Source: Escherichia phage W70. From it: a DNA stretch of 64,000 nt. The notes under the pieces were generated by a model. It had not been told where the DNA came from. It did no database searches and saw only the letters and a program-made list of their open reading frames with translations. The DNA is taken from the sequence record OP778610; one strand, written 5' to 3'. The position numbers were made by a program, and so were the translations under genes. Of the stretch, positions 9,849 to 47,586 are shown piece after piece; position 1 is the first letter of the stretch, and each line of letters starts with the position of its first letter.

Positions 9849-10148
9849 CTAGTGGCACGCCCCCCAGTTCATCCCTGTGAGGTATTCACCTGTTATGTGG
9901 ACAGGAGATTTCATCATTCGTGCTGCTTGCTCTACACAACGAACAACCATCTCTCCAACTGGACAATACATGATCGTGTAGATTCCATTCTCATCAGGAT
10001 CACACTTAAACTTCCCTTCTTTCACACAATGACCATCCAAGATCATTTTCTTAGCCAAGCAAGCTTCTACAAATTTCTTCGCGTCAGCTTCGTTGTCAAA
10101 GGTCCAGGTCTTCTTGAACTTGTGCGGTACTTCAAGCTGGTATTCATC
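9849..10148 (-). CDS. DNA polymerase (family A), exon 2
   Basis: DEYQLEV completes motif C when joined to exon 1 (YYH|DE); C-terminus NWGACH like Pol I/T7 ...H terminus. Confidence 0.65.
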   Translation of the reverse strand, partial: DEYQLEVPHKFKKTWTFDNEADAKKFVEACLAKKMILDGHCVKEGKFKCDPDENGIYTIMYCPVGEMVVRCVEQAARMMKSPVHITGEYLTGMNWGACH

Positions 10149-10920
10149 CAAAAGTTTAACGAGGTCGTTACTCTCGCCCACATCATTACATGTTGCCATA
10201 CGTTTTCACATATGGATCGGACTATATCACCATCCTTTTCAGGATGCTCCCCATTTCGACGGCACTTGCTCGCCTACGCCTCTCGGCTAGTCTCTGAACG
10301 TTAGGACCATGTGTAGTCACAAGAGATGTGTGTCCAGTTTTTACGGATTTTTATGGACCTTACCACGTTGTAAGGATAACCCATATCCCGAATCTGTGCA
10401 CTTCCATAACCTTGCCCCAGGAAGTTGCAAATCTCTCTAACCTCTTCTTCGGTAACTATACTTCTGGCGTTATCAACCCCTGTTGCTGAACGACATTTAT
10501 CAGCAAAGGTTTTCTTGATATTTCCACCACGAGTTGTCCATTGGAGGTTTGAATAGTGGTTATTCCTTTTGTCAGGCCACTTATGATCAACCTCCGGCAA
10601 ACCTTCAGGGTTTGGTACAAAACACTCTGCCACCAAAACGTGAACAGCCTTTGTAGTCGTCCTTTTGTTGAGATACAGACTTACAATAAGATACCCACGT
10701 CCATTATCAACTGCCGCCATTGGTTTCCCTCGACGACCTATAATGGTCCCGTCTTCATAAACCTTGTAACCGAAATAATCTTTATATTCCACATGATCCT
10801 CTTCGCTGCTGATTAACATAGTCTCATACTAACTCACACTTGAATTAATATCAACCTTAGTCTTCCAGCAATTAAAGGAGTTTTCGATGTGAGTTACCTC
10901 ACAAAGCCACAATGTTACTT
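10149..10920 (-). mobile_element. group I intron in DNA polymerase gene, HNH-ORF-containing
   Basis: In-frame stop right after exon 1; core elements GACTAGCCGAGAGGCGTAG and GATATAGTCC on minus strand; ends in G before exon 2. Confidence 0.65.
10301..10819 (-). CDS. HNH homing endonuclease (intron-encoded)
   Basis: LPEVDHKWPDKRNNHYSNLQWTT HNH-type motif; lies inside intron. Confidence 0.7.
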   Translation of the reverse strand: MLISSEEDHVEYKDYFGYKVYEDGTIIGRRGKPMAAVDNGRGYLIVSLYLNKRTTTKAVHVLVAECFVPNPEGLPEVDHKWPDKRNNHYSNLQWTTRGGNIKKTFADKCRSATGVDNARSIVTEEEVREICNFLGQGYGSAQIRDMGYPYNVVRSIKIRKNWTHISCDYTWS

Positions 10921-13251
10921 ATGGTAATAGATAATACGTCTAACGCCTTCATCATACCAACCTTTCTTAACCAACTGCCAGTGCAGGAGGATACCCACCA
11001 AGTCAAACAGTGCAGCACCACCATTCTGCTGATAAGCATTAAGCAATGAGTGTTTGGAACGAGTGTAGATCTTACGTCCATCAAGACCGTAGATGAATCG
11101 CTTACCGTTAGCTTCCCAAAACTTCTCTAGTGCTTCTTTACGACCTTTCAAGCCGATGTTGCTATCCCAGAATGCGTCGATTACTGCCTGGGCCTTCTCA
11201 AGAGTGATCCCCAGCATTGATGCAATCTTCGCTGCCTGTGCCCCGTACATAATTCCGTATGTCACACCTTTACCTTCACCACGAGAAACCTTCTTCCCTG
11301 CCGCTTTGGTATACGCTTCTGCGTTTCGGGAGTGAGCATCTCCAGATTCCATGATACGAAGATAAGCACCGCCATCGAAATCATAAGCGCCCCATGCTGC
11401 GATCATACCTTCTAGGTTTGAACCGTCGATACCTACCTGATATTTACCCTCAGAGGCTCTGAATAGTTCACGCATCTCTTTACCGAGAAGAACTTTCTCA
11501 TCCGGCTTAGGTACGTTTGCTACGATCGTATGCTTACGACGACCTGTGTTAGTTATTCCACTATAACGGGCCGGAAGTTTACCGTCAACTCGTAGACGTG
11601 GATGGTTAAGCCATCCGGTATCAACCTTCTCTTCTTTCAGCGGGTCAAGAACAGATCGTCGGTTACGTAAAGACAGCCATTTAACAATCTGTTTAGCCAT
11701 TTCACCATCTACTCGCTCAAGGTTAGGGCAAAGACCCTGTTGATCCTTAAGTTGTGGAGATGTAGGTAATGCACGAGCTTTCTTACGGAAAAACTTGAAC
11801 ATCTTTTCTTTATCTGACCACTGCTTAGGTGTGATCGCCAAGCTTTTCAGAATCAGATCACGATACTCCGTCTGATCCAAATCTTCAATGTATTGACGAA
11901 CAATCAGATCAACTTCACTATCGGGACGTTGTTTCTTGAACTGATCTTTAGTTGCATCCTTTGTACGCCAAATTGTTGGGACCCATCCTGCATCACGGAT
12001 CAGGAACTTCTTAACGTCGTCCTGGTTACCAATACGCATCGGAATCATAATGTCCGGCATCTTTTGTTCTTTGATATCCATCAAAGCACGAGCCATATCT
12101 TCCGGCGGCAAAGGAACAAGCCCTTGCTGCTTAACGTTTTGTGCACGGATAAAATCACCCATTTTGGATTCGTCCTCTACACCGTGTTCAACACAATACT
12201 TGATCGCGGCAGCAGTAAGAGATCCGTCAGCCTTAAACGGCTTACTTGGTGCACCTTTAAATTCCAAGGCTTCCCAATTGATATTATAACCTAACTTCTC
12301 TAACCATTTCCAACCTGTACCGGAAAGAGATCCATCACCCTTGAAAGGTTTGGATGGGAATGTCGGTTGTGCTGATTTCGACATCTCTTTCTTCGGCAAC
12401 TTAGGTTCAACCTCTAACTCAATGTCAGTCATCATCTTATCGATACGATCACGAAGCTTGAGTGCTTTTTCTTCATCAAATGAAACACCCTGAATTTCTT
12501 GCTCAATCATCAGGTAGTCAGTCAACATACCTCGACGCAGGGCATTCTTCCAGTTGATCATTTTATACTTCTTCTGATCTTTGTCTGTTTCATCCTTAAA
12601 CATGAAGCGTTTATCATCCGGCATGGATTCACAGGAGATCTCTTTCATCAGAGCATCCCACACCATTTCGTTGATAATTACGTCTTCAATAATACGATCG
12701 CAATACTTCCAAAGTGGAAGGCCACGCCAATCTTCAATCGCCACTTTCTGGTTAGCTACTCGCATACCCCAAGCTTCAAGCCCGTGTGGCCCTACAGGCT
12801 TCATTTTACCTGTGACGGGGTTCTTTACCATCTCAGGACAACCGCGAGGCAGAGGGCGATCTGGATACAATGTACGGGACATTGAAAGTGTATCGAAGAT
12901 GGTTACTTGTTTACCATTGATCGTCCCCATGCAACCAGGGTCTGCAAACATATCGTAAGTTGTTCCTAGCATCTTCTTAAACAACTGGAGGTCATAGCCG
13001 AAGATGTTGTGGATAGCAACTGCTTTAGGCTCGGTAACGAACCATTCGTTTAATTCTTCAAGGGTGCGGATCTTGAAGTTTTTACCTTTAGATTGGATAA
13101 ATTTAACAGCTTGATCGTAACCTTCTCGCTGTGGATCAAGAAAGATGTTCCAGTTATCTTTTTTGTACTCTTTAAACAAGATGCAGTGGATTAGATCAAC
13201 TTCTGTCAACAGACCATTAGCTTCCGCATCTCCAATAAATAAGCCTTTCAT
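10921..13251 (-). CDS. DNA polymerase (family A), exon 1
   Basis: N-terminal FIGDAEANG 3'-5' exo motif; KKVSRGEGKGVTYGIMYGAQAAKIA resembles motif B; ORF stops one codon after ...YYH. Confidence 0.75.
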
Positions 13252-13417: not shown

Positions 13418-13693
13418 TCAGTCTTCTATTACCTCAAATTCATCATTAAAAGCTACGATAGTTTCACCGTAGCCCATGTTTAATCGGGCAGTTGTAGGTT
13501 TGCCATTCCTAGATAGATAGTACACCCTCGCTTCGTAAATGTCACCAACTTTTACACCGTAAGCCTGTAGGTCTTTGTTATTGATATCTTTATTTTCAGC
13601 ATTGATTATTCGAACACTGCTGATCTCTGAGTATACAGAATTATCTTTCATCAGTATTTTTCCTCTGGACGGAAAACTCCACGGCAAGCCCAC
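13418..13693 (-). CDS. hypothetical protein
   Basis: 91-aa ORF. Confidence 0.4.
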   Translation of the reverse strand: MGLPWSFPSRGKILMKDNSVYSEISSVRIINAENKDINNKDLQAYGVKVGDIYEARVYYLSRNGKPTTARLNMGYGETIVAFNDEFEVIED

Positions 13694-13941
13694 ATACTTG
13701 CTTCTTTGAGGCGATCTTTAGCCTTAGATAAGCAATCAGATGCAAAAAGCACGGAATCTAGATCCCCTTCGGGAATCGAAGAGTCATTAGCCAGTCGATT
13801 ATATTCCTCAATAATCTCGTCTTCTAATGCTTTTAAAATAAGACCTAAACGAATTTCAGCATCTTTAATGGCATTCACCTTACCGATTTTTTCATCGGTG
13901 TGTGGTTTGTAGCCCTTAATGTCATCAATAGCCATTACCAA
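13651..13941 (-). CDS. hypothetical protein
   Basis: 96-aa ORF. Confidence 0.4.
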   Translation of the reverse strand: MVMAIDDIKGYKPHTDEKIGKVNAIKDAEIRLGLILKALEDEIIEEYNRLANDSSIPEGDLDSVLFASDCLSKAKDRLKEASMWACRGVFRPEEKY

Positions 13942-14733: not shown

Positions 14734-15055
14734 AATCTTCTCCGTAAATATCTTTAATTTTTGAACTGAGGTATCCAGGATCGCAGCCATCATACCACAC
14801 TTCTACGAAAACCTTTTGGGAATCTTTGATGATCTTTGCCCCGACTCTTTCAATCCCCTTGAAGAAAGATTGTAAGATGTAATCATCTAACACGTTTACT
14901 CCATAAGCATCGTGGAGGGATTTTTCATCGTGAACATACACAACCATCTTACCATCATACGTAACTTGAATGCAAGGGTCATCTTCCCAAGTAATAGCCG
15001 GAGAATCCGGCTCAAGCTTTGCAATAACACCAATAGTCAATCGGTTGTCACTCAC
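14723..15055 (-). CDS. hypothetical protein
   Basis: 110-aa ORF. Confidence 0.45.
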   Translation of the reverse strand: MSDNRLTIGVIAKLEPDSPAITWEDDPCIQVTYDGKMVVYVHDEKSLHDAYGVNVLDDYILQSFFKGIERVGAKIIKDSQKVFVEVWYDGCDPGYLSSKIKDIYGEDYEI

Positions 15056-16269
15056 TCTTTACCCCCTGCGATGCGTAACATTTGGATAGTTTTCTCCAGT
15101 TCTTTACGAGGTTTGGCAACTAAACGACGTTCGTGTCGCTTCAGGAAGCCTTCTAAGAACTCTAACGGTTTAAAGGATAACACTTCCTGTACTGATTCGT
15201 CAACAGCATACTCTTTCTGGACCATACGATAAACCGGATTTTTTACAGTTACAGGAGTATAACCCTTACTGATCGCCATTTGGGTAACAACACGCTTCTT
15301 GCCATCGGTCCATGAGTCATCGATCGGGAAAGAATCTTTACCGTATTTTTCAGAGAATAACTTAACTGCTGTTTTTGTCAAGTCATCCTGATCTTCTTGT
15401 GTTCGACTTTGACCCCAATAATAACCACCAGAGGTCTTAGCACGACGTTCCGAGAACAAAGCAAGGTCATCGTACTGCTCAAGAGCTAAACGCGCCAGAA
15501 GCTCGATATCGTCGCTTTCTGACAGCAGTCGGTTTGCTTCGTACTTAACTTCAAAAGTATTTGCACTATCACGATCACGGTCAAGGGTGAAAGCTTCTGG
15601 CTTGAAGTCGTAATCGAATTTAAAATTACCTGGAACACGAGTAACGAACAGTCCATTTACAAACAGGTTGCAGTCACCGCCTGTGATAGATCCATCCTCT
15701 TCTTCATTTTGGTATTCGTCCGCAGCATTATACAGTTTAGTATAAGCTTTGCCGCGATCATTCTGAATAACGACTGTACGTTCAGTGGTTGGCGCATAGT
15801 TATTCATAATTTCAGACATAGCACAATGAGGGATGTTTTCAATGATCACAGTTACAGTATTTGAATCACGGCCTGACAAAGCCTTTTCATGGATATCTAC
15901 CGCCAAAATATTCTGTTCGTATACTGTATCATAAACCATATTTGGAATCCAAAGATCATTACCATTTTCGATAACAATGTCTGCACCTTCACGAACAAGC
16001 ACCAGAAGACCTACTTTCAGACCTTCACCAAACTTACCGATCTTGCTGTCATCATCACGTTTGGTTGAAACACCCATCAAAAGGCCGGAAACGGGAACAA
16101 CACCGCCACGAGAGATGATTGTGATCTTACCTTGATTACTATCATCTTTACTAAAATAAATATTGAAATCTTCTGTATCGATAGCATTTTGCATTAGTTC
16201 ACGAGCACCTTGCCACCATGACCAGTGACTGACGTAATTTTCAGTGATGCTCAATTTAATCTGTTTCAT
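15052..16269 (-). CDS. GHKL-family ATPase-like protein
   Basis: N-box-like RELMQNAIDT and G2-box-like GKFGEGLKVG near N-terminus; start overlaps upstream stop. Confidence 0.5.
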   Translation of the reverse strand: MKQIKLSITENYVSHWSWWQGARELMQNAIDTEDFNIYFSKDDSNQGKITIISRGGVVPVSGLLMGVSTKRDDDSKIGKFGEGLKVGLLVLVREGADIVIENGNDLWIPNMVYDTVYEQNILAVDIHEKALSGRDSNTVTVIIENIPHCAMSEIMNNYAPTTERTVVIQNDRGKAYTKLYNAADEYQNEEEDGSITGGDCNLFVNGLFVTRVPGNFKFDYDFKPEAFTLDRDRDSANTFEVKYEANRLLSESDDIELLARLALEQYDDLALFSERRAKTSGGYYWGQSRTQEDQDDLTKTAVKLFSEKYGKDSFPIDDSWTDGKKRVVTQMAISKGYTPVTVKNPVYRMVQKEYAVDESVQEVLSFKPLEFLEGFLKRHERRLVAKPRKELEKTIQMLRIAGGKE

Positions 16270-16281
16270 TTATTTGCCCTC

Positions 16282-16998
16282 TTATTTGTTGTATTGATAA
16301 ATTGCTTCAGCCAAGCCCCGTGGGGTTAATGACCGGATCATCTTAGTTCTTGCTGACTTACCACCCAACTTATTCTGCTGATCTGACCAACCAGGTGCAA
16401 CAGGAACCGGAGAGGTTTTTGGAATTATAAACCCATTCCCTGTCCAAAGTCCAGTCTTTTTAGGATAAGCATCCCGTGGTTTAATGTACTGAGGAAAATA
16501 AGGGTTAACATCATTTACCGGAAGATAACCACCATATTCCCAAGGGTTGAAATATACCGTAGGCTTTCGCCATTGTCCAGCTAAAACACTAACGGGGTTC
16601 TCGATCATGTAAGGACAATCAAAAACAAATTCCGCAAGCCAAGCTGCAATCTTTGCAGTTCTTACCGCCTTGATCTGGAAGAAAGGATCTTTTGCTTTCT
16701 TTGATGCAAAGTGACGCGAACCACTGACAGCCATATCAGTACATGGAGGGTAGGCAAGGATCAGGTCCGGTGATGGCAATCCTAAGTTCTCTACATTCTC
16801 CATCCATTCAATATCGATAAAAGCGTTAACGTAAGTGATGTTGGGATGAATTTCCTTTACACCTTCATAATCCCCGTGATCAGCATCGTCATAGTTGAAG
16901 CAGTAGCATTTGTGCCCTGCTTTTGCCCAAGGAAGAACATCAATACCTGAACCAGAAAAGAGACTCCAGATAATCTTTTTATTCATCGTAGCATCCAA
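16282..16998 (-). CDS. minimal DNA (cytosine-5)-methyltransferase-like protein
   Basis: Motif I LFSGSG; motif IV PPCT-DMAVSG (PC catalytic dyad, Thr in place of Gln); motif VI ENP; only 238 aa. Confidence 0.5.
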   Translation of the reverse strand: MDATMNKKIIWSLFSGSGIDVLPWAKAGHKCYCFNYDDADHGDYEGVKEIHPNITYVNAFIDIEWMENVENLGLPSPDLILAYPPCTDMAVSGSRHFASKKAKDPFFQIKAVRTAKIAAWLAEFVFDCPYMIENPVSVLAGQWRKPTVYFNPWEYGGYLPVNDVNPYFPQYIKPRDAYPKKTGLWTGNGFIIPKTSPVPVAPGWSDQQNKLGGKSARTKMIRSLTPRGLAEAIYQYNK

Positions 16999-17291
16999 AT
17001 AGTGGTTAATTTACAAATACACCAGAAAATCCCGATCAGTGTAGCCAGAGTAATAACACAAGTCAATGCTATAGGTAAGAATATTGTCATAATCACTGCA
17101 AAGACTGAAATACCTACGCTTGCAATAAGATCCGGTACGAAATAGTGAAATGGATCTCTTGCCTTTTTAATGTTGTCCCATGTTATTACTACGGAGCTAA
17201 GGACGAGCCAGAATAAAAAGTACAAAATGCAAGGAAATAAAGTCATGTGTGACTTAACCATATCAAACCACATGTTGTAGAATTCAATCAT
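16983..17291 (-). CDS. small membrane protein
   Basis: Three hydrophobic stretches. Confidence 0.45.
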   Translation of the reverse strand: MIEFYNMWFDMVKSHMTLFPCILYFLFWLVLSSVVITWDNIKKARDPFHYFVPDLIASVGISVFAVIMTIFLPIALTCVITLATLIGIFWCICKLTTIWMLR

Positions 17292-17611
17292 TCAGTTTTC
17301 CTCGGTACAGATGCAATAACAGCCTTTTCGACGAGACATACAATAAATCTCCCAATCCCTGCCAAAAGGAGAGCAAAGACTGTAAAAGGCAACCCATAAA
17401 TAAGAACCAAAATCATCAATCCAAAACAAGCGGAAAACAGGACTTCTGTGCCTAGCCACATTTTGGAGTAATTGATATAATTATGTCGCAATTTTAAAAA
17501 CAGTCCAGCAATAGAGCCTACAGAAAATATACCAATCAACCAAGGTGCAGTTACAAATGAACGACTGAACCCTTCCCAAAAAACAAAAACATTAATGATT
17601 GCTTCGATCAT
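17288..17611 (-). CDS. small membrane protein
   Basis: Hydrophobic throughout. Confidence 0.45.
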   Translation of the reverse strand: MIEAIINVFVFWEGFSRSFVTAPWLIGIFSVGSIAGLFLKLRHNYINYSKMWLGTEVLFSACFGLMILVLIYGLPFTVFALLLAGIGRFIVCLVEKAVIASVPRKTE

Positions 17612-19352: not shown

Positions 19353-19414
19353 TTGTTTCTCCTTTCTGTTTGGTATGGGGGAAGTATAGGGGAGTTTAGG
19401 AGGGGTGTCAATAG

Positions 19415-19442
19415 AAAAACCGCCCGAAGGCGGTTTATTTTG
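19415..19442 (-). terminator. intrinsic terminator
   Basis: Stem aaccgcc-ttcg-ggcggtt then T-run on minus strand; same hairpin recurs at 53504. Confidence 0.65.
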
Positions 19443-19449: not shown

Positions 19450-19971
19450 TCAGAAAGGTGCTTCGTCGTCGAAATCTACATCTTCAACTTCCGGTACATC
19501 AGGAATGTCACCTGCGGATTCAACGATACTCTGTTGTTCCCACGTAGGTTCCTCTGAAGGTTGGTCCATTTCTTCCATAACCTTCTTGATCTCTTCCTCT
19601 TGCTCACGCAGGAAGTTATCATCCGGCTCAGGAATATCTTCCTCTTTAATATCTGAACGAGTGAGATCACTGTTTTGTTCAGACAGAGGTTGAATCTCTG
19701 CTGCTTTAGGCTTAAAGTCTGGAGAACGATGATCATCTTCTGGATGAGCGGCATACCACTCACGAAGAGTTTCATAAGGACTCTCTAAGAAGCCCTCTGG
19801 CGGTTCCAGATAATCACCCGTATCAATGTCATAGAACACAGGGAATTTACCAGCACGACCGTGTTTACGGTCATCCAGAATAACAAAGTAAGAAGTGTTA
19901 CGTTGTTTCATCGGGAGTTCTGGATCTTTGTTACGTTCAATTCCCCACATATAGTAAGTATTCTTTATGTC
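19450..19971 (-). CDS. primase-helicase (T7 gp4-like), exon 3 with acidic C-terminal tail
   Basis: GIERNKDPE...VILDDRKHGRAGKFPVFYDIDTGDYLEP parallels T7 gp4 C-terminal region; ends DVDFDDEAPF. Confidence 0.6.
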   Translation of the reverse strand, partial: DIKNTYYMWGIERNKDPELPMKQRNTSYFVILDDRKHGRAGKFPVFYDIDTGDYLEPPEGFLESPYETLREWYAAHPEDDHRSPDFKPKAAEIQPLSEQNSDLTRSDIKEEDIPEPDDNFLREQEEEIKKVMEEMDQPSEEPTWEQQSIVESAGDIPDVPEVEDVDFDDEAPF

Positions 19972-20808
19972 CAGGCTACTCGCTAGGTAGCCTCGGTGTG
20001 CTAAGACACCCGCCCATACTTTCATACAGGAACAGACTATATCATCACCTTTCGGTGCTCTCCACTTCGGAACCGCTTGGTCCCTACGCCTTTCGGCTAG
20101 TCGTTGAAGATTTTGCATATTCAGGATACATGGTCCAAGTATACAGATTGGCAATTTCTTTCCAATCCCTTTTGCTTCGGATGTTTAGAACAACCGCCCT
20201 TTTAACTTGAATGCCACTACTTTCGGCTATTCTCTTTGCAGTCCATCCCTCTGAAAGTAACTGGCATATCTTATGCACGTCGTTTTCAGAAAGTCCGGTA
20301 CTGTAATGATCTTGCCCTCTAATTGGTAATTTGTTTTCTATCGAGTGTCGAAGATTTTCCTCTTCTGTTACCCACTCAAGGTTATCTTTATGATTGTTCA
20401 ACTTATTACCGTCTTTATGATTTACCTCTGGTAAATTTAAAGGGTTTGGTATATAAGCCTTCGCGACCATCCTGTGAACATACTCAGGCTTCCGCTTACC
20501 ATTTAAGATAACATTAACAACAAAATACCCTGTACCCTTACTTAATGAATTTTTAAGGAATCTTCCTGAAAATTCACTAAAAACTTGTCCATCTTCAGTG
20601 ATAAAGTATGGACTGTTTTCTTCTATTCTTACCATAAGTCCCCTCTTTCATGGGACCAAGATCTAGAATATGCAACTTTCCTGCTGATTACCCAATCCTG
20701 TACCTTTTTAAACATTCACGCTTGCCTTTGCAGACTACGTTGTAGTGTTACAGGCTCTAAGGGCTTCCCAGCAATTCAAAGAGTTTTAGATGCGCTCTAC
20801 TGCTGTTA
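19972..20808 (-). mobile_element. group I intron in primase-helicase gene, HNH-ORF-containing
   Basis: Stop directly after exon 2; core GACTAGCCGAAAGGCGTAG and GATATAGTCTG; 3' boundary approximate. Confidence 0.6.
20084..20635 (-). CDS. HNH homing endonuclease (intron-encoded)
   Basis: LPEVNHKDGNKLNNHKDNLEWVT HNH-type motif. Confidence 0.7.
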   Translation of the reverse strand: MVRIEENSPYFITEDGQVFSEFSGRFLKNSLSKGTGYFVVNVILNGKRKPEYVHRMVAKAYIPNPLNLPEVNHKDGNKLNNHKDNLEWVTEEENLRHSIENKLPIRGQDHYSTGLSENDVHKICQLLSEGWTAKRIAESSGIQVKRAVVLNIRSKRDWKEIANLYTWTMYPEYAKSSTTSRKA

Positions 20809-21399
20809 ACGCATCATTGCACGGCTACCAGCAAACTGCGCTGACTGGACTTGACCACCAAATTCATGAGGCTTGCCAGATTCAGGCTTATTAAGGTGAC
20901 AGAAGCAATAATAAGTAAAGCCAAGCTCTTTTGCCAGTTTGGAGATCTCATCCGAGAATCGTTCCAGTTCCTGGTTAGCTTCAGAAGCACTCATACCTTG
21001 CACAAGACGAGTGATCGGGTCAATAAAGATATCTTCACAACCTTCTACGATCACTGCGTGACGGATAGCACCTTTCAGTTCATCCCATACTGCACGACCA
21101 TAGTTGTTATAATAGATAACACTATCACCAACTTCATCAGTAGCTTTGATCAGTTCTTCTTGCTTAAAGTATCCACGTTGACCTTCAAAAACTTCATTGC
21201 CCCAAATGTCACGGTAAGTTCCATCTTCTTGAGGAATCATTACCTTTTCGGCATTAACAAAGTCTTTATGATAACGCTTACCTGCGATCTTCTTACAAGT
21301 GATCTCGTTCTCTTCTTCAAACTTAAACACCGCAGCTTTTGACTTTTCAATACCCGTGATGTGTTCAACCATTTGGTTAAGAAGTTCAGACTTGCCCAT
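20809..21399 (-). CDS. primase-helicase, exon 2 (helicase core)
   Basis: Starts MGKS (Walker A remainder); IFIDPITRL Walker B-like; FCHLNK and QFAGSRAMM helicase motifs. Confidence 0.65.
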
Positions 21400-21688
21400 T
21401 TTCACCGTTATGTTCGACAGGGTTCGCTACTCCCTGCCCGTTCTCTTACGAACTGCTACATGTCCCCATGCAGACCAGACTATATCTTCAACCTGTTTCC
21501 AGGTGCTATGCACTTCGGACCGCTTGGCCCTACTCTACTCGATTCAAGAGTCTAGCTCTTGTCTTTCGATAGTCGTTGCTCCTTCCTTTTTCAAGGCTTG
21601 GATCAGGATTACGTGTTCTACGCTTCCCCTGAGTTCACATAGTATTTAGTCGAGGCATCTCTGCCAAGGCTGGCTAGACTTAATGTTT
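21400..21688 (-). mobile_element. group I intron in primase-helicase gene, ORF-less
   Basis: About 290 nt between exon 1 ...IGAG and exon 2 MGKS...; core GCTAGACTC and GAAGATATAGTCTGG; no ORF. Confidence 0.6.
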
Positions 21689-22624
21689 ACCAGCACCGAT
21701 GAAGTAACCTTCACCTGGACGACGACCCAAGGTAAGCTTGGTCATGGTGGGCCAAGGGAACTTCTTGCCGAGTTTAGGGATCTCATGTGCCTTTTCGCGG
21801 AACTGTGAATAAGTCGAGAAACCATCAGGCACATATTCTTTTGGCTTCATTGCAGCCCAAAACAACTGATCAGAAAGACCTTTGTTATACATATCGCAAG
21901 GGTCCATATCTTCTGGAATATCCACGACCTTCATTTGTGGAATTACAGAGTATACCGCTGCAACTGCATCTTTACCTTTCATGATCCCTTTGGCCTTCTC
22001 TGCTTCTGTCGCACGGTCAGCATCGAAAGCTACGATAATCTCTTCAAACTTACTCAGAAGCTTATAGTTATTCTTCTGTGATAAGTTTTGCACGGCATTG
22101 GATGTACCGTTAGAGATAGATACAACTGTGAAGTTTGGTTTACGAGTGGAACCATCCTTCGGTTTGTACTTCTCTGTCAATACCTGCCACAAGATTGCAG
22201 CATCGTATTCACCTTCAGTGATAAAGATCATACGTTTGGAAGACTTGTTTGCACCTTCCAGACCAAACATATCACAGGCTACAGATTGGAAACCGATAGT
22301 TGTAAAGTGCCCTTTCTGTTGCTTAGGGATCGTAAGATCACGCTTTTTAAAACCTACAACCTTACCTTCCAATGTGTACGGAAAATAATGTGCTTCTGGA
22401 GTCATACCGTCTTTAGCTGACAACTTGGTACGAATACCAAATCGTTTAGCTGTCTTTTCGTCGATACCACGCTCAGGGATACTTTTACACGGGTAAGTCA
22501 ATACATCTTCAACTGTTTCTTCCACACGAGACACACCGCCGCCATAATTACGTGCCACCGAAGCTTTAGGGTTTTTATGTCCAAACTTATAACCGCCAAA
22601 CAAACTTTCGCCAATAGTGCTCAT
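21689..22624 (-). CDS. primase-helicase, exon 1 (TOPRIM primase domain)
   Basis: TOPRIM motifs ITEGEYDA and FDADRA; ends GEGYFIGAG (start of Walker A). Confidence 0.7.
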
Positions 22625-40019: not shown

Positions 40020-40838
40020 ATGGCCTATCGTAAATTTGACCCACTAATCATTTATGAAGTTGTCCCAATGAGTGTCTCCAATCCTCATGGTTTGCAATCA
40101 CCTACTCCACTTGACCATAAGACAATGATCAGGAATGCAGAGTACACCTTAAGAGATCTTGAGAACGAAGAGATTGAAAGTGCTGTGCATGGATTGAAAG
40201 ACCTGATCCGTGAACTTGATACGGATGATTCTGTTCAAGAATATATTGAAAAGTCAGAGGCGCTAATCACGAAGTTTCATGAGTACCGCACTAAGGTATC
40301 GCGTATTCTTGATGAAGCTTTTGATCCTTCATCAAAAGACCCGATAAATGATGACAAGGCAATAACCTTACTCAGCCAAATAGCTGACGCTACTGACAGC
40401 ATGGACCCTGGTTTTGTAAGGGCTGATCATACCTGTGTAGATCAGTTTCCTTTAGCCTATCTTAAATCCAAAAAAGCATTCGGTAGTCTGGCTTTTGTCT
40501 GGGAGTATGAGAAAGATTCCCTTACTCGTTACATCAATCGGGTAGGTAAGAAAGATACTTCAGTTACGTTAAATATCTTTTGTGATGGTTCCTTGATGGT
40601 CCATAACAACTGGACAAAAGAGAGCATCCTCTTTGGTAAAGAAAGAGATCAGAAATTTAAACTAGTAAACTATATCCGTTTCGCAACAGAGGATAGTAAA
40701 ATGGGTAAGTCATTTAAAGAGGAGGACTTTAAAACTTTCTTTGAGGATTGGCTTTCCCCAACAGAAGAAGAGATCCAACTCTTCAAGGCTGTGAATGGGG
40801 ATGTTTCATTTGACCTGTACACACTCTTTAACGAGTGA
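40020..40838 (+). CDS. hypothetical protein
   Basis: 272-aa ORF. Confidence 0.55.
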   Translation: MAYRKFDPLIIYEVVPMSVSNPHGLQSPTPLDHKTMIRNAEYTLRDLENEEIESAVHGLKDLIRELDTDDSVQEYIEKSEALITKFHEYRTKVSRILDEAFDPSSKDPINDDKAITLLSQIADATDSMDPGFVRADHTCVDQFPLAYLKSKKAFGSLAFVWEYEKDSLTRYINRVGKKDTSVTLNIFCDGSLMVHNNWTKESILFGKERDQKFKLVNYIRFATEDSKMGKSFKEEDFKTFFEDWLSPTEEEIQLFKAVNGDVSFDLYTLFNE

Positions 40839-41136
40839 TATTTGTTTGCTAAAACAAATTCAGATTTCAGATCCAAAATCTATTTGAGATATTTCCCTGT
40901 GATATTTGTTTCATGGGGAATTTTCAGATTTCAATTTGAAATTCTATTTGAGATAAATTTAAGACTCTTGCCACCGTGTCACATCCATACTGTTTCATTC
41001 CTGCATACCCCGCACCACTAGATCAACTAAGCTGATGCCTCGCTTACAGACACACCCTTCAGATTCAATACGTTACTGCTCCAGTATACATACGATACAA
41101 AGCAAACATACGACACTCATGACCAGAATAATTTGA

Positions 41137-41303
41137 GAACTTGAGAGGTTTTTCATTTTTGAGATCGTAACCTGAAAACTGTGCACGAGAACTTGAGAGG
41201 TTTTTCGATACAGAGATTAGGAACTTGAGAGGTTTTTCATTTTTAAGTTTGCATTTGAAATTGAGAACTTGAGCTACAGGCCAGATACTTGAGGGGTTTT
41301 TCA
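41137..41303. repeat. direct-repeat (iteron-like) array, consensus GAACTTGAGAGGTTTTTCA
   Basis: Copies at 41137, 41189, 41221, partial 41265, variant 41285; irregular spacing. Confidence 0.7.
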
Positions 41304-41666
41304 AATTTCAGTTTCATTTCAAAATTGGAAAATTTTTTATATCCACAAAAATATAGGGCTTGTCAAGGTCTTTGATAAGAAATTTTCAGGAGGTGAGAAT
41401 TATTCTCATTTGCAGAATAACGGGCAGGGGTGGTGATTGCTTCGTGAAACCGTCCTCATCACCATGAATATATAATAGCACCGTTTTTGATTAGAAAGCA
41501 ACAACATTTTAAAAATATTTTTCGGTAAATTTTGGCCGAGCCACCGGCGATCCACCTTACAACCTGGCGGCGATGCCTGGTATGTTAGCCCCGCCTTTAC
41601 GCCGTGGGGATGGCGATTGTTTTCCTATGTAAGCATTATGGCCCCCTGGCGGGGCCGTTGTCAAGA

Positions 41667-41933
41667 TTATTTTTTGTTTTCTTGCCAGGCCAGGACACCT
41701 AACCAAAAAATAGGATAACCGCGTTTATCTTTTGGTATGTTGCTTTCCCCGCCACCGCCTTGCATCCATTCTACGCCACTGTTAAACATTTCAAGCTGAT
41801 AAAGGTCGGTTATCTTTGTATCCTTAAGGTTAAGGATTGTTTCAACCTTTAAGCCTGTTGCACTCGCCACTTGGTGGACCGTTCCACCTTGCCATTTTAA
41901 AGCGTGCATGAGGTGTAGTGTAGTAGTTGTCAT
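41667..41933 (-). CDS. hypothetical protein
   Basis: Isolated minus-strand ORF. Confidence 0.4.
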   Translation of the reverse strand: MTTTTLHLMHALKWQGGTVHQVASATGLKVETILNLKDTKITDLYQLEMFNSGVEWMQGGGGESNIPKDKRGYPIFWLGVLAWQENKK

Positions 41934-42043
41934 GTTGTGTTGCCCTTTCTTTTGTTGTGCGCCCTGGTTGTCGCGGTAAAAAGACTATAAATGATCTTCC
42001 TTTATATAGCAAGGAAAAAGAAATTAAAAAAGATTAAAAATAA

Positions 42044-42072
42044 TGTTGACGTAGTGAATCTGGTAGCGTAGT
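42044..42072 (+). promoter_or_regulatory. sigma70-like promoter
   Basis: TTGACG, 17-bp spacer, TAGTAT. Confidence 0.5.
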
Positions 42073-42131
42073 ATTCATCTCATCGAACGGCGACATGCCA
42101 ACAAGTAAACAAATAAAAGGGCAACAACAAA

Positions 42132-42317
42132 ATGAATAAAAGAATTACAAACGTAAATCCTGGCGAACGTTTCCAACATGAGGGGCATTTGCACACTGTA
42201 GTAAGCAACAAAGAGCATACTGTAAGAGTAAATAGAAATATCTTGCAACTTCGCGATCGTTTTGGTATCGTACAGACTTACACTTTCGAAGCAAATAAAA
42301 CAGTTAAAACTTTCTGA
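42132..42317 (+). CDS. hypothetical protein
   Basis: 61-aa ORF. Confidence 0.45.
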   Translation: MNKRITNVNPGERFQHEGHLHTVVSNKEHTVRVNRNILQLRDRFGIVQTYTFEANKTVKTF

Positions 42318-42328
42318 GGATTTTTAAA

Positions 42329-42664
42329 ATGGCACTAGTCACTAAGTATTTCATTGAAGGCCAGCAAGCGGCGCAACAAGGTTACAGCCGTGTTACTCGT
42401 TACAAGAAAGAAGAAAACAAGATTGAATTTTTCAAGGGTTACGATAGTGTAAACCGTGATGCAATGGTCCTACGCTTCGAATCCGATCCAGTGGGCAAGC
42501 CTGTTACCTCTTACCAGGCATCACCGCAGATTGTTTATGTTGGTACTGTTAAAGAATGTAACGACAAGTTAATCACTTTGAAGCAGGCCGATCGTGCGGG
42601 TTACTTTGTTGTTTACACTGCTGACGGTAAGCCTTACCAGTACGAAAGCAAATATTTTAAATAA
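42329..42664 (+). CDS. hypothetical protein
   Basis: 111-aa ORF. Confidence 0.5.
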   Translation: MALVTKYFIEGQQAAQQGYSRVTRYKKEENKIEFFKGYDSVNRDAMVLRFESDPVGKPVTSYQASPQIVYVGTVKECNDKLITLKQADRAGYFVVYTADGKPYQYESKYFK

Positions 42665-42672
42665 AAAGTATT

Positions 42673-42727
42673 GACAGAAAGAAAGAAGTAAATTAAATTA
42701 TACCACGTAACGCCGCAATCGTGCGGC
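42673..42727 (+). promoter_or_regulatory. promoter plus 5' hairpin cassette
   Basis: TTGACA, 17-bp spacer, TAAATT; hairpin gccgca-atcg-tgcggc. Confidence 0.5.
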
Positions 42728-42754
42728 AATAAAAACTGATAGGAATTGAACAAA

Positions 42755-42967
42755 ATGGCTAAAATCATCATTAAAAAATCCCGTGTATCTTCTGTTGCTC
42801 GCGTCGAAATGGTAAACACTATGCCAGGTTACCGGACTCGCGAGGAAGCCCGAAGCGTTGCAAAACAGATTAAAGCCCGTGGCTTAACTGTAAGTGCACC
42901 GACCAAAACACAAGAAGGATGGAAGGTATCTATTAAATCCGGTACACTGTCGATCAATAAACACTAA
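42755..42967 (+). CDS. hypothetical basic protein
   Basis: ATG at 42755 preferred over TTG at 42746. Confidence 0.45.
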   Translation: MAKIIIKKSRVSSVARVEMVNTMPGYRTREEARSVAKQIKARGLTVSAPTKTQEGWKVSIKSGTLSINKH

Positions 42968-43030
42968 TAGCCAAAACATTAACGGGGCAACTTTGCCCCT
43001 CACTAAATAACATTATCCAGGAGTATTAAC

Positions 43031-43189
43031 ATGACTAGCCAAAACACTAACATTGAAAAAATCAACATTACTAAAGAGCGTAAAGCATGGAATGAAACAT
43101 TAAATCTGAAAGGTAAGAAGCTGAATAAAACTAAACGCGATCGCAGTACAAAGCGGGCCTTTTGTGAATTTACAGCGGATCAAGAATGA
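43031..43189 (+). CDS. small ORF (52 aa)
   Basis: AGGAG RBS 7 nt upstream; overlaps next start; below ORF-track cutoff. Confidence 0.35.
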   Translation: MTSQNTNIEKINITKERKAWNETLNLKGKKLNKTKRDRSTKRAFCEFTADQE

Positions 43190-43485
43190 TGATTAAAGTT
43201 ATTGCACTTACTGCCTTATTGTGTATACCATTTTTGGCGCACGGTACTAAGTTTTACGGTGCTAACTTGATAGATTGTAAAGCTCATATGCTGGACCATG
43301 AAACAGGCAACAAATTTGTTAAGCCTTTCCAGATCAATCCGGCGGTGTTTACTGACGGTGTTTTATATCAGGAAGGTAAAGCCAGTACGCTGATAATCCA
43401 TTACGATCCAGCGACAAAGAAAGGTAGTTTATCAATCCAGGTTGAAGGCGCGGAAGAGTTTTCAGGTAAAATAATCTGCAATTAA
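43186..43485 (+). CDS. secreted or periplasmic protein
   Basis: N-terminal signal-like MIKVIALTALLCIPFLAHG. Confidence 0.5.
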   Translation: MMIKVIALTALLCIPFLAHGTKFYGANLIDCKAHMLDHETGNKFVKPFQINPAVFTDGVLYQEGKASTLIIHYDPATKKGSLSIQVEGAEEFSGKIICN

Positions 43486-43545
43486 TATGTTAAGGCCCGC
43501 CATTGTGCGGGCCTTTCTTTTATGAAAATAATTTTGAAAATGTTG

Positions 43546-43614
43546 TTGACAGCACCGATTAAAAGCGTATGATGTATTACATCAGGACGGGGAACCAAAC
43601 AAGTAACTCCCCGT
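43546..43614 (+). promoter_or_regulatory. promoter plus hairpin with no downstream ORF
   Basis: TTGACA then -10-like, hairpin acgggga...tccccgt; no start codon before next promoter. Confidence 0.35.
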
Positions 43615-43663
43615 TAAGTAGTCCAGGAGTAAGACATACGAAAACCTCCCCTGATAAAATAGT

Positions 43664-43722
43664 TTGACAATAGTTTTTAGTACTGTATAATACATTACAT
43701 CAAGGGGAGAATAGTTCTCCCC
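43664..43722 (+). promoter_or_regulatory. promoter plus 5' hairpin cassette
   Basis: TTGACA, 16 bp, TATAAT, hairpin GGGGAGAA-tag-TTCTCCCC. Confidence 0.6.
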
Positions 43723-43742
43723 ACATCAAAGGAATCAAAACA

Positions 43743-43970
43743 ATGGCTATCGTAATCACTCGCGTATCTGGTACAGTTGGCAATGCGGCAGTAGTAGCGG
43801 TTATCACTAATAAGAAAGGTGCGGAACTACATTTTGCAATGTATAACTGGTCAGTTGATGAGTTTGGTCAGTACGCTAGTGTAGAATACATTGAAACCTA
43901 TCAAGTGCCGTCGATTAGTTTAACTGATTTGGGCGTTGAGCGTATCCTTTGCCTGGATGAATTAAATTAA
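43743..43970 (+). CDS. hypothetical protein
   Basis: 75-aa ORF after cassette. Confidence 0.5.
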   Translation: MAIVITRVSGTVGNAAVVAVITNKKGAELHFAMYNWSVDEFGQYASVEYIETYQVPSISLTDLGVERILCLDELN

Positions 43971-43977
43971 AAAAGTA

Positions 43978-44038
43978 CTTGCAAAGTAAAACGAATAACG
44001 TATAATACATTACATCAAGGGGAGAAATGATTCTCCCC
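43978..44038 (+). promoter_or_regulatory. promoter plus 5' hairpin cassette
   Basis: TTGCAA, 17 bp, TATAAT, hairpin GGGGAGAA-atga-TTCTCCCC. Confidence 0.55.
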
Positions 44039-44055
44039 ACTAAGAGGAAACTAAG

Positions 44056-44196
44056 ATGAAAACTTGCCAGTGTGGTAAAAAGTCTATTGCTGGTCTGCGT
44101 CGCGGTGTTGCTTTATGCCAGTATCATTACAATAGTCAAGTATGGGGTAAAACGTGGGCTGACCAGGTTGAAGCAGCAAAGAAAGCAAAAAAGTAA
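44056..44196 (+). CDS. small Cys-containing ORF (46 aa)
   Basis: Follows cassette; CQCG...CQYH; below track cutoff. Confidence 0.35.
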   Translation: MKTCQCGKKSIAGLRRGVALCQYHYNSQVWGKTWADQVEAAKKAKK

Positions 44197-44253
44197 TTGA
44201 CAGCAGGAAGAAAAAGAGTAAACTGTATTACGTAGGGCGGCAATAGCGCCGCC
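44197..44253 (+). promoter_or_regulatory. promoter plus 5' hairpin cassette
   Basis: TTGACA, TAAACT, hairpin GGGCGGC-aata-GCGCCGCC. Confidence 0.5.
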
Positions 44254-44274
44254 ACATCAAAGAGAGAAATCAAA

Positions 44275-44493
44275 ATGGCTAATATCCGCACACTGTTAAA
44301 AAATGCAAAAGAAGTTTTATTTTCTGACGATGAATATTTTAATCGCAATATCAAAGGCGTTCGGAACATTAAGGATATAAAGGAATTATTTGGAATCAAA
44401 GGTAACGTATATCGTAAAGGATTGCACGGTAATAATTTTGAATATAAGTTGGCTGATAGTGATTATAATTTTACACTGACCATCATTAGTTGA
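44275..44493 (+). CDS. hypothetical protein
   Basis: 72-aa ORF. Confidence 0.45.
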   Translation: MANIRTLLKNAKEVLFSDDEYFNRNIKGVRNIKDIKELFGIKGNVYRKGLHGNNFEYKLADSDYNFTLTIIS

Positions 44494-44512
44494 AAGTTTT
44501 AATCTAGCGCTA

Positions 44513-44541
44513 TTGACTTAAGCCGATAGTGCTGGCATAAT
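44513..44541 (+). promoter_or_regulatory. sigma70-like promoter (no hairpin)
   Basis: TTGACT, 17 bp, CATAAT. Confidence 0.5.
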
Positions 44542-44573
44542 AACTTTTATCAAGAACATCAAAGGAAAGTAAA

Positions 44574-44786
44574 ATGGCTATCATTACTAAAATCAAAGTA
44601 AACAAAACACTGGTTAAGCTGGAAGAAGTGAAAGCAGGTTATAAAGTATCTTGGTGTGGCATGTATCGGATGTTCACAGATATAGACGATGCAATCAATT
44701 ACTACACTAACACGATTAAAAACTTTGTTCGTGCTGATGTGATTATTGCAGTGGAAGCACATAAAGCATCGAAAGAAAGTAAGTAA
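44574..44786 (+). CDS. hypothetical protein
   Basis: 70-aa ORF. Confidence 0.45.
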   Translation: MAIITKIKVNKTLVKLEEVKAGYKVSWCGMYRMFTDIDDAINYYTNTIKNFVRADVIIAVEAHKASKESK

Positions 44787-44805
44787 AATTATTACCACAG
44801 TACTA

Positions 44806-44834
44806 TTGACAACTACTGATAGTACTGACATAAT
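44806..44834 (+). promoter_or_regulatory. sigma70-like promoter (no hairpin)
   Basis: TTGACA, 17 bp, CATAAT; near-duplicate of 44513 promoter. Confidence 0.5.
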
Positions 44835-44879
44835 AACTTTTATTAAGTACTACAAATCAAACAAAGAGAGAATACAATC

Positions 44880-45119
44880 ATGGCTAACAACAAAACTTTT
44901 AACGGTCACAAAAACAAAACTCATTGGAATGTTTCCTTGTGGATTAATAACGATGCATCACTGTATCGACTGGCTAATGATTTCATCGTCGCTAACACTA
45001 ATCGTAACGATGCGGCCCGTCATATGATGTTATTTTTAGAACAAACCGGACAACATAAAACACCGGACGGATTCAAGTATAGTACTACTGCAATCCGTGC
45101 CGCGATGGTTGGGATGTAA
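44880..45119 (+). CDS. hypothetical protein
   Basis: 79-aa ORF. Confidence 0.45.
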   Translation: MANNKTFNGHKNKTHWNVSLWINNDASLYRLANDFIVANTNRNDAARHMMLFLEQTGQHKTPDGFKYSTTAIRAAMVGM

Positions 45120-45176
45120 TATTCAGTACTGAATCAATGGCGGGGAATAGTTCCCGCCTTTACTGAGGATTATCTA

Positions 45177-45461
45177 ATGAGCAAAGTAATTAATAGTAAA
45201 GTACTGAGTAAAACATTAACACTCACTGAGTGCACCAATGGCTTTTGGCTATACGATTCTACCCGTGGCATGAATATAGCTATGCAAGCGAAATCAGAGG
45301 AGGCTGCATTTGTTGAAGCCCTGGGATACTATCAGAGACGTCTACAGGAAGTAGAAAACAATTACACCAGCCTTAAAGCGAAAGTAGACCATTTCATCGG
45401 GCAAGTGGTAGAAGATGATGAGGATGGTCACTATTGCGAACGCTGCGGATCTTACAGCTAA
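45177..45461 (+). CDS. hypothetical protein
   Basis: Preceded by hairpin GGCGGGGAA-tag-TTCCCGCC at 45139-45158. Confidence 0.45.
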   Translation: MSKVINSKVLSKTLTLTECTNGFWLYDSTRGMNIAMQAKSEEAAFVEALGYYQRRLQEVENNYTSLKAKVDHFIGQVVEDDEDGHYCERCGSYS

Positions 45462-45469
45462 AAAAGTAG

Positions 45470-45527
45470 TTGACACAAAGAAACAAAACAAGTAAATTAA
45501 TCACATCAGGCGGGGAATGGACCCGCT
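45470..45527 (+). promoter_or_regulatory. promoter plus 5' hairpin cassette
   Basis: AAAAGTAGTTGACA, 17 bp, TAAATT, hairpin GGCGGGGAATGGACCCGC. Confidence 0.6.
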
Positions 45528-45548
45528 AAAAGAGAAGAGAGAAATCAA

Positions 45549-45881
45549 ATGAGCTTTTTATCTATCGTACAGACTAACTTTGAAAATGATTTCATTGCTC
45601 AAGCTATCAACATCGACAAAGGTATCCCAAATATCAATTTTGGTTACAATAGCGGTGGTTATGAAAGATACCAGTATTTTGTAACTGACGATGGAAGTGT
45701 TTTAGGTATCAATACAGTGATGGCTAATATCCAAAACATTAATTTCAATGATCCCGATGAGCGCTCATTTTATATCGTCGGTATCCAGGTAAACTATGAA
45801 GATGATACGTTAACCGATGATTACACAGGTGAAGTATTAGAAAGTGTTTACGGTGATGAATCAGAAGAAGAAGAAGAATAA
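45549..45881 (+). CDS. hypothetical acidic protein
   Basis: C-terminus SEEEEE. Confidence 0.45.
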   Translation: MSFLSIVQTNFENDFIAQAINIDKGIPNINFGYNSGGYERYQYFVTDDGSVLGINTVMANIQNINFNDPDERSFYIVGIQVNYEDDTLTDDYTGEVLESVYGDESEEEEE

Positions 45882-45896
45882 GATTAGAAAAAGTAG

Positions 45897-45955
45897 TTGA
45901 CGGAAAGAGTATAAAGAAGTAAGATAATTAACGAATAGGGGGAAACATCTTCCCC
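45897..45955 (+). promoter_or_regulatory. promoter plus 5' hairpin cassette
   Basis: AAAAGTAGTTGACG, 17 bp, TAAGAT, hairpin GGGGGAA-acatc-TTCCCCC. Confidence 0.55.
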
Positions 45956-45980
45956 CATAAACAAAAAGAGAGATTGAAAA

Positions 45981-46163
45981 ATGACAGAACTGATTGCAAC
46001 TACAAAGATCGAAGGCGTTAACGATGTTACTTTGTCCTATGATCCTTCTACTCTGGTTTATGTTGTGAAATATGGCAGAATGATCGCAGAACTTGATTGC
46101 ATTGATGAGGCTTTCGAAAAATATTTCGAACTTATCAATATTGCTTATGATGACTACCGTTAA
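45981..46163 (+). CDS. hypothetical protein
   Basis: 60-aa ORF. Confidence 0.4.
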   Translation: MTELIATTKIEGVNDVTLSYDPSTLVYVVKYGRMIAELDCIDEAFEKYFELINIAYDDYR

Positions 46164-46193
46164 TATACAACGTAAAAATAGAAAGGTGATAAA

Positions 46194-46403
46194 ATGATCA
46201 ATGAAAAAACAATCAATGATGTTCGCGAGGAAGTTTTAGCCGTTGCTGTAGAATCGGGTGCACGTCAGGCATTTTGGAAAGCTACTGATCTTTACCCCGA
46301 GCAAGCCGAAAATATTCTTAATCAGGTCAGCGTTAAACTTGAACAAATAGGCAAACTGAAAACAAGTGAGCGCCTCGACCAAATCATTAAAGAAAGTTTT
46401 TGA
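46194..46403 (+). CDS. hypothetical protein
   Basis: 69-aa ORF. Confidence 0.4.
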   Translation: MINEKTINDVREEVLAVAVESGARQAFWKATDLYPEQAENILNQVSVKLEQIGKLKTSERLDQIIKESF

Positions 46404-46441
46404 TTGACTTTTAACATTGCCCCTATTAGTATTCAGGGGCA
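46404..46441 (+). promoter_or_regulatory. sigma70-like promoter with overlapping hairpin
   Basis: TTGACT, 17 bp, TAGTAT; inverted repeat GCCCCT...AGGGGC. Confidence 0.45.
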
Positions 46442-46467
46442 AGATTAAAAGAAACAAGGACACAAAG

Positions 46468-46779: not shown

Positions 46780-46966
46780 CATATGACTAATACAAACCGA
46801 CAAAAAATCATCAAAACTAAAAAACTTGATTTCAATACTTATCAAGAATGCAAGAAGAAAGTAAAAGATAAGCGAGAGAACAAGCGGCACGAATGGATAA
46901 GCAATACAATCGATCTTTAATATCAACCTAAGCCCACTATGTGGGCTTTTCTTATGGAGAACAGAC

Positions 46967-47194: not shown

Positions 47195-47279
47195 TTTAAA
47201 AAACTTCTTGCATCCATTATTGAGAAGATGTACATTAGTTTCATCAAGACGAGATGATGACAATCAAAAGGTGATTACT

Positions 47280-47573: not shown

Positions 47574-47586
47574 TTTGAAAAAGTAG

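Follow-up and report, generated by a model that had tools for sequence, protein, structure and literature searches.

A compact Dcm-like cytosine methyltransferase gene and an adjoining stand-alone GHKL-fold gene in a Vequintavirinae-like Escherichia phage

Two adjacent minus-strand genes of Escherichia phage W70, found in the 64-kb stretch of DNA analysed here (the window), are probably independent and only happen to adjoin within a single long early/middle transcription unit, one encoding a compact C5 methylase, the other a stand-alone GHKL-fold protein. An earlier note, made from the sequence alone, had assigned the two products to the C5 methyltransferase and GHKL folds, and both assignments hold. 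The note had also viewed the genes as a coupled modification or anti-restriction system of open chemistry, and this view is contradicted by the phyletic pattern of the two families and by the 5-methylcytosine (5mC) reported for the related Dcm of phage K42. The attractive reading of the locus as a methyltransferase plus MORC-like ATPase system is corrected here as unsupported.

Gene models and transcription unit

Positions 14500-17500 of the window are 98.4% identical to Escherichia phage UPEC06, a member of the Vequintavirinae with a genome of 143 kb, and phages A73, LTH01, A7_1 and A5-4 provided further close matches. The source of the DNA is a Vequintavirinae-like E. coli myophage. Direct reading of the sequence confirmed the two minus-strand ORFs of 238 aa (16282..16998) and 405 aa (15052..16269), the 12-nt gap between them, and all the motifs quoted in the earlier note. 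The TTG at 16998 is the mechanical start of the longer ORF version only. The methylase gene most likely spans 16282..16986 (minus strand) and encodes 234 aa from the ATG at 16986, because the stop of the gene upstream falls within an ATGA overlap at 16983-16986, and the UPEC06 counterpart is annotated as a 705-bp "DNA cytosine methyltransferase". The intergenic spacer (16270..16281, minus strand) reads GAGGGCAAATAA, in which GAGGG resembles a Shine-Dalgarno sequence for the GHKL gene. The latter spans 15052..16269 on the same strand.

A consensus scan of the minus strand revealed a terminator-like hairpin (19436..19417) followed by a sigma-70-like promoter, TTGACA-17-TATACT (19411..19383), and no further minus-strand terminator-like sites between this pair and position 13000. 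The hairpin and promoter likely mark the start of a long leftward unit in which both genes reside. The unit includes more than 12 genes and is not a two-gene operon: about ten small genes lie upstream of the methylase and GHKL genes, several downstream. An Acb2-type anti-defence (sponge) gene is found in the same unit, 1.1 kb downstream of the GHKL gene. The region sits between helicase/primase and DNA polymerase genes, and inherited synteny within a stretch of accessory genes offers the best account of why the two genes adjoin.

The compact methylase

The methylase matches phrog_757, annotated as 'DNA methyltransferase', over its full length (residues 3-237, E 3.6e-78), and features all four signatures of this family, FPPCTDLAVSG, ENPV, RDAYxKKT and RSxTPRGFA. 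Conservation was assessed in an alignment of 72 family members. The catalytic cysteine C82 of motif IV (P80-P81-C82-T83; 16738..16749, minus strand) is invariant and T83 is conserved in at least 90% of the sequences. In motif VI (E129-N130-P131; 16594..16602, minus strand) E129 and P131 are invariant, N130 is conserved in at least 90%. Residues P148, Y174, W181 and P189 are also invariant. The SAM-binding loop of motif I (FxGxG) is intact in the window protein as F-S-G-S-G, and is degenerate in some distant members. Canonical motifs VIII (QxRxR) and X (GNxVP) were not recognisable in the methylase; the family-conserved stretches RDAYxKKT and RSxTPRGFA occupy their places, and about 30 variable residues (183-212) are found where the target-recognition domain (TRD) would lie.

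The search of a database clustered at 90% identity yielded 2325 homologues at E <= 0.001, which form 1016 clusters at 50% identity. The 120 homologues listed measure 150–262 aa, mostly 226–260 aa, and the window protein falls within the 210–260 aa range of the compact Dcm-like phage family. Matches were found by tblastn in 1520 of 50,697 phage records, which include Dhillonvirus, Drexlerviridae, Vequintavirus, Klebsiella siphoviruses and large 160-kb myoviruses; many of the homologues are annotated as "Dcm-like C5 cytosine methyltransferase". The small size and the Thr replacing the Gln of the usual PCQ motif had been noted earlier as oddities. Judging from the aligned sequences, both are defining traits of the family. 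The window methylase is a further member of this well-populated group, with nothing unusual about it, and few accessory gene families are commoner in enterobacterial phages than the compact Dcm-like methylases.

Profile searches approached the C5 methyltransferase class without entering it. The Pfam model DNA_methylase (PF00145) covered residues 11-109 only and scored 21.3 bits (E 2e-4), just below the gathering cut-off of 22; TIGR00675 scored 16.3 against a cut-off of 100.65. The profile built on the 72 sequences retrieved no significant C5 methyltransferase among PDB sequences (M.HaeIII, E 0.96), and phmmer searches of PDB sequences with either single protein of the pair gave nothing meaningful. 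Because the methylase sequence is too divergent, its relationship was resolved by fold search alone: the protein has the C5 methyltransferase fold, DNMT3A/B being the best structural matches. PADLOC was also run on both proteins. The methylase gave weak MTase_II/DruM matches only (E >= 1e-3) and the GHKL protein a non-significant match to TmtA, and neither was retained as a component of a known defence system. The phage methylase is about 90–100 residues shorter than M.HhaI, and differs from the class of M.HhaI, M.HaeIII and DNMT3 in that neither a TRD nor the consensus of motifs VIII and X is recognisable. E. coli Dcm, an EcoRII-type enzyme acting at CCWGG, measures 472 aa, is extended at its N terminus and has a large TRD. 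The phage protein is half as long and distant from it in sequence, but presumably methylates the same site to the same product (C-5mC-WGG), as the analogy of K42 Dcm suggests.

Phage K42 is a 95.4%-identical relative of the BASEL phage KarlJaspers (Bas06), and mutations by which it escapes retron Ec86 (Retron-Eco1) were mapped to its 711-bp dcm gene (bioRxiv 10.1101/2023.08.16.553469, preprint). Expressed alone from a plasmid, K42 Dcm was reported to give rise to 5mC, measured by LC-MS on msDNA and not on phage DNA; the mutant C82A/E128A/K175A/K176A was inactive, and the Dcm-dependent Ec86 response needed CCWGG in the msDNA stem (bioRxiv 10.1101/2023.08.16.553469). The KarlJaspers dcm gene (MZ501090, 40087-40797, 711 bp) encodes a protein 55% identical to the window methylase over the full length (E 1e-87). 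The two measure 236 and 234 aa, respectively, and share the PPCTD catalytic loop, which reads PPCTDL in KarlJaspers Dcm. C82, E128, K175 and K176 of K42 Dcm correspond to C82, E129, K176 and K177 of the window methylase, in the same catalytic layout, and the RS(L)TPRG motif at the C terminus is common to the K42, KarlJaspers and window proteins. The genes reside in different hosts, a Vequintavirinae-like myovirus (window) and Drexlerviridae siphoviruses (K42 and KarlJaspers). The most divergent region between the window methylase and KarlJaspers Dcm, which includes an indel, is the putative specificity segment at about 183-212.

The altered catalytic motif had been thought to leave the chemistry open. 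Since the K42/KarlJaspers relative, itself of the PPCTDL type, is reported to make 5mC and has its catalytic residues arranged alike, the chemistry can no longer be called seriously open, and the family is by analogy assigned the formation of 5-methylcytosine in DNA. The fold and the conserved residues suggest that Cys82 of PCT would attack C6 of a flipped-out cytosine, that Glu129 of ENP would protonate N3 of the target, and that the methyl group would pass from SAM to C5 of the cytosine. The short segment connecting the core to the C-terminal helix (about 183-215) may stand in for the TRD, as in DNMT3. It is improbable that the protein does something else, such as the transfer of another group (e.g. 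carboxymethyl, from Cx-SAM), the modification of RNA or tRNA in the manner of Dnmt2, or the binding of DNA as a dead enzyme. The LC-MS result obtained with the K42 homologue and the inactivity of its catalytic-residue mutant speak against these alternatives, as does the intact motif I of the window protein. Invariance of C82, E129 and P131 in 72 diverse members is at odds with a dead enzyme. DNMT3A/B, the best structural matches, are active with a PCN motif.

Target sites and restriction

The likeliest target of the methylase would be the Dcm site CCWGG, as suggested by the K42 homologue and by the site statistics of the window, yet specificity may not transfer from one protein to the other because segment 183-212 is divergent. 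Occurrences were compared to expectations from a maximum-order Markov model of the 64-kb window. Several restriction palindromes have been purged: CTGCAG (11.5 expected), GGATCC (8.5), GGTACC (9.0) and TCCGGA (14.3) are all absent, and AGGCCT occurs once (11.0 expected). GATC is found 366 times (361 expected). CCWGG has been kept for the most part, at 72 sites against 92.7 expected, and CCSGG is reduced to a single occurrence (25.1 expected). CCWGG sites are kept, and CCSGG sites are missing, also in fragments of KarlJaspers and DanielBernoulli. Dcm-type methylation at CCWGG also blocks enzymes cutting CCNGG there. The pattern is suggestive of CCWGG sites shielded by Dcm-type methylation, and of selection against the CCSGG subset, which could not be protected. 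Host Dcm alone could account for the retention of CCWGG. Certrevirus-like loci exhibit the reverse pattern, CCWGG being depleted; such counts therefore mirror pressure from the host, and are no proof of the specificity of the enzyme.

Methylation at CCWGG would shield the phage DNA from restriction enzymes of the EcoRII and CCNGG types, and its price would be sensing by retron Ec86/Eco1, as the K42 homologue and the site counts suggest. Vequintavirinae were "exceptionally susceptible" to the restriction-modification systems tested in the BASEL study (PMC8594841), hence any protection conferred by the methylase must be narrow. The gene probably provides Dcm-type protection from EcoRII/CCNGG-type restriction, and probably sensitises the phage to retron Ec86 in E. 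coli hosts of the B/BL21 type. Both effects are relevant to the choice of hosts in phage therapy.

The GHKL-fold protein

The 405-aa protein corresponds to phrog_6077 (E 1.9e-125), a family of unknown function. It has a Bergerat fold, and its motifs were compared in an alignment of 74 distinct family members. The N-box ExxxNxxD, which holds the catalytic Glu and the Mg-binding Asn, is present as R23-E24-L-M-Q27-N28-A-I-D31 (16177..16203, minus strand); R23, E24, Q27, N28 and D31 are found in all 74 sequences. The G2 box GxxGxG is present as G78-K-F-G81-E82-G83-L-K85 (16015..16038, minus strand), in which G78 and G83 are invariant, and G81, E82 and K85 are conserved in at least 97% of the members. 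G66 and K70 are also fully conserved. The G1 box DxGxG is missing. The window protein reads S53-R-G-G-V at this position, and the glycines are poorly conserved across the family too. S53 (16111..16113, minus strand) takes the place of the adenine-contacting Asp; two independent alignments agree in pairing it with the Asp of VVDNGIG in Topo VI-B and of IVDTGPG in P0181, the most distant family member. In GHKL ATPases, the Asp of the G1 box binds adenine N6. This position is occupied by Ser in 51 members, Asn in 19, Thr in 4, and Asp in none. The consistent loss of the Asp is the only feature of the family that is mildly surprising. A family-specific motif, L229-D-R231-D232-R233 (15571..15585, minus strand), was also identified, in which D232 and R233 are conserved in 74 and R231 in 73 of the 74 sequences.

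No Pfam model reached its cut-off with the window protein. With the HATPase_c profile, a check proposed earlier, the distant member P0181 passed the cut-off (28.0 bits, cut-off 26.4). In NCBIfam, the sacsin N-terminal ATP-binding-like domain was hit at E 1.5e-5 (25.4 bits, cut-off 50), and the family profile matched weakly Topo VI-B and MORC2 (E 0.08–0.5). The structural model had no specific similarity to the GHKL and S5 domains of MORC above that to other GHKL clades. Profile searches gathered at least 312 members, of which the 120 listed stand alone and measure about 244–464 aa (mostly 330–410 aa); nearly all of these are unnamed. Some homologues carry PF25856 as a precomputed Pfam accession. 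The few "bacterial" members lie amid arrays of small phage-type genes. In contrast to the Hsp90 N-domain, Topo II, GyrB, Topo VI-B, MutL and MORC, the phage proteins never have the G1 Asp. They also differ from GHKL/GHL ATPases in lacking Toprim, nuclease, CW and coiled-coil domains, and in two features unique to the phage family, a helical domain at the C terminus and the invariant LDRDR motif. The protein belongs to an uncharacterised GHKL clade restricted to phages, whose nucleotide pocket is conserved but departs from the canonical form.

The probable role of the protein, proposed at low confidence, is that of a switch which binds and hydrolyses a nucleotide to change conformation or to dimerise, and which may act in host takeover or replication with no involvement of the methylase. 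It may bind no nucleotide at all, because the G1 Asp is lost. A ligand other than ATP is possible because the Glu, the Asn and the G2 box are invariant, and Ser, Asn or Thr always replaces the G1 Asp. That the clade recognises such a ligand (a guanine or an immune signalling nucleotide) and forms a new host-takeover or counter-defence factor is a long shot, and a partnership with the methylase confined to this lineage is less likely still. A survey of the literature for phage GHKL anti-defence proteins retrieved nothing relevant. This widespread, unnamed, phage-restricted family, consistently deprived of the G1-box Asp, is the part of the locus that merits modest follow-up.

T4 rIIA likewise is a phage-encoded protein with a GHKL domain, and rIIA proteins (Foldseek E about 1e-7), along with a phage 'HSP90 family' protein, are the closest viral folds outside the family, T4 rIIA being the best such match among viral structure models. 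Some GHKL homologues are annotated as 'RIIA lysis inhibitor' or 'chaperon protein', and the Acb2-type gene lies nearby. On these grounds the window protein might be regarded as a truncated rIIA-like or Hsp90-like factor, i.e. a protector from abortive infection or a chaperone, rather than a nucleotide switch acting on DNA. We consider this unlikely. TM-scores with rIIA are only about 0.4; T4 rIIA measures 725 aa, and has a canonical DFGPG G1 box, never found in the family; and the similarity to Hsp90 is confined to the shared GHKL core. Relationship to T4 rIIA was rejected at the sequence level, where hhalign assigned it a probability of 8%.

Neighbours, probably not a system

The two families differ markedly in their spread. 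The GHKL family was found in 100 phage records, the methylase family in 1520; among records of Escherichia phages the figures are 8 and 575, respectively. Methylase homologues were identified near the GHKL gene (±4–6 kb) in 3 of 83 loci, the UPEC06 locus itself being left out of the count, and no GHKL homologue was found near the methylase in 80 IMG/VR methylase loci (700 kb in total). GHKL homologues 69–71% identical to the window protein reside in the Certrevirus phages phiTE, DU_PP_I and DU_PP_IV. A cytosine methylase is present in CB7 and CR3/8/9, and absent from phiTE, DU_PP_I and DU_PP_IV (PMC7344957); at the phiTE locus, no methylase adjoins the GHKL gene. Phage LNA4 carries both genes, separated by 103 kb in its linear record and by 44 kb when the genome is treated as circular. 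Conserved linkage of the GHKL gene to restriction-modification or methylase genes is thus lacking in the 83 loci.

The hypothesis to be weighed against that of independent neighbours is that the two genes form a module, either a MORC/MutL-like, ATP-driven clamp directing a methylase devoid of a TRD, or an anti-restriction pair. Prokaryotic MORC-like GHKL proteins accompany restriction-modification modules, and the earlier note had cast the GHKL protein as such a companion. Only 12 nt separate the two genes, which are probably co-transcribed, and three CR9/Certrevirus-like contigs (L005, L007 and L008) have a methylase homologue, 46% identical to that of the window, just upstream (0.3–1.2 kb) of their GHKL gene. 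This co-location indicates that the neighbourhood predates the present phage lineage, and the two genes may be weakly linked in function. Set against a module are the rarity of co-occurrence, the unequal spread of the families, the GHKL genes of phages deprived of the methylase, the lack of any specific MORC affinity in the GHKL model, the predicted transcription of both genes within a much longer unit, and the finding that K42 Dcm works alone from a plasmid (bioRxiv 10.1101/2023.08.16.553469). A module is largely refuted by the phyletic pattern, and we hold it to be very improbable; the methylase and GHKL genes are neighbours, and are not supported as a system. Clustering of the genes flanking the GHKL gene in 84 loci revealed no conserved neighbour family, and the "families" most frequently scored in that clustering correspond to antisense ORFs located inside the GHKL gene itself.

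Restriction-site usage and related methylase loci

The window strongly avoids several restriction palindromes. By observed over expected counts (maximum-order Markov model), CTGCAG (0/11.5), GGATCC (0/8.5), GGTACC (0/9.0) and TCCGGA (0/14.3) are missing altogether, AGGCCT (1/11.0) and ATGCAT (3/14.5) are rare, and CCSGG (1/25.1) is found only at 53811. CCWGG, the Dcm site (72/92.7), and GATC (366/361) are retained. The reverse bias is found in three Certrevirus/CR9-like IMG/VR contigs, in which a GHKL gene is preceded upstream by a homologue of the window methylase (methylase coordinates: L005, 4139-4798; L007, 5072-5734; L008, 5052-5711): in their flanks CCWGG measures about 0.4 of expectation, and CCSGG exceeds 1. 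The methyltransferase homologues are only 45-46% identical to the window enzyme, the GHKL proteins encoded beside them 69-74% identical to the window GHKL protein. The opposite bias may reflect a different specificity of the methylase, or a different restriction pressure in the hosts.

Genes flanking the methylase and GHKL genes

Two small ORFs encoding strongly hydrophobic products of 102 and 107 aa (16983..17291 and 17288..17611, both minus strand) adjoin the methylase gene directly upstream, through overlaps of the ATGA type. Both probably encode membrane proteins; neither has a Pfam match, and only one of the two matches a PHROG, of unknown function. On the other side, downstream of the GHKL gene at a distance of 1.1 kb and in the same transcription unit, resides a 96-aa ORF (13651..13941, minus strand) that matches the Acb2/Tad1 hairpin domain (Pfam PF24729, 60.8 bits against a cut-off of 27, E 1.5e-16). 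Its product is likely an anti-CBASS/anti-Thoeris cyclic-nucleotide sponge. In precomputed annotations, the Pfam accession PF25856.2 is assigned to many homologues of the GHKL protein (P0151, P0173, P0176, P0333-P0342 and others).

A presumed region of small genes and two interrupted replication genes

In the interval 40838..49955, about 9 kb long, both strands lack ORFs of at least 130 aa, and tRNA genes are absent; very small early genes are presumably packed closely together here.

Comparison with the close relative UPEC06, in which the DNA polymerase is intact (876 aa), revealed that the polymerase gene of the window is split by a 772-bp insertion (10149..10920) into a 778-aa N-terminal ORF (10915..13251) and a 116-aa C-terminal ORF (9849..10199), both on the minus strand. 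The insertion carries, on the same strand, a 172-aa HNH_3 endonuclease-like ORF (10301..10819; E 3e-5, just below cut-off). Rfam detected no intron at this insertion, which may be either an intron or a free-standing homing endonuclease.

In the primase/helicase, the Toprim-like part is separated from the DnaB_C-like part by a group I catalytic intron (21456..21721, minus strand; Rfam RF00028, 70.4 bits against 50, E 8e-16). The intron is flanked by ORFs at 21680..22624, 20806..21405, 20084..20635 and 19450..20154. The ORF at 20084..20635 is a second HNH_3 ORF (34.5 bits), and holds apart the DnaB_C part and the C-terminal primase/helicase fragment.
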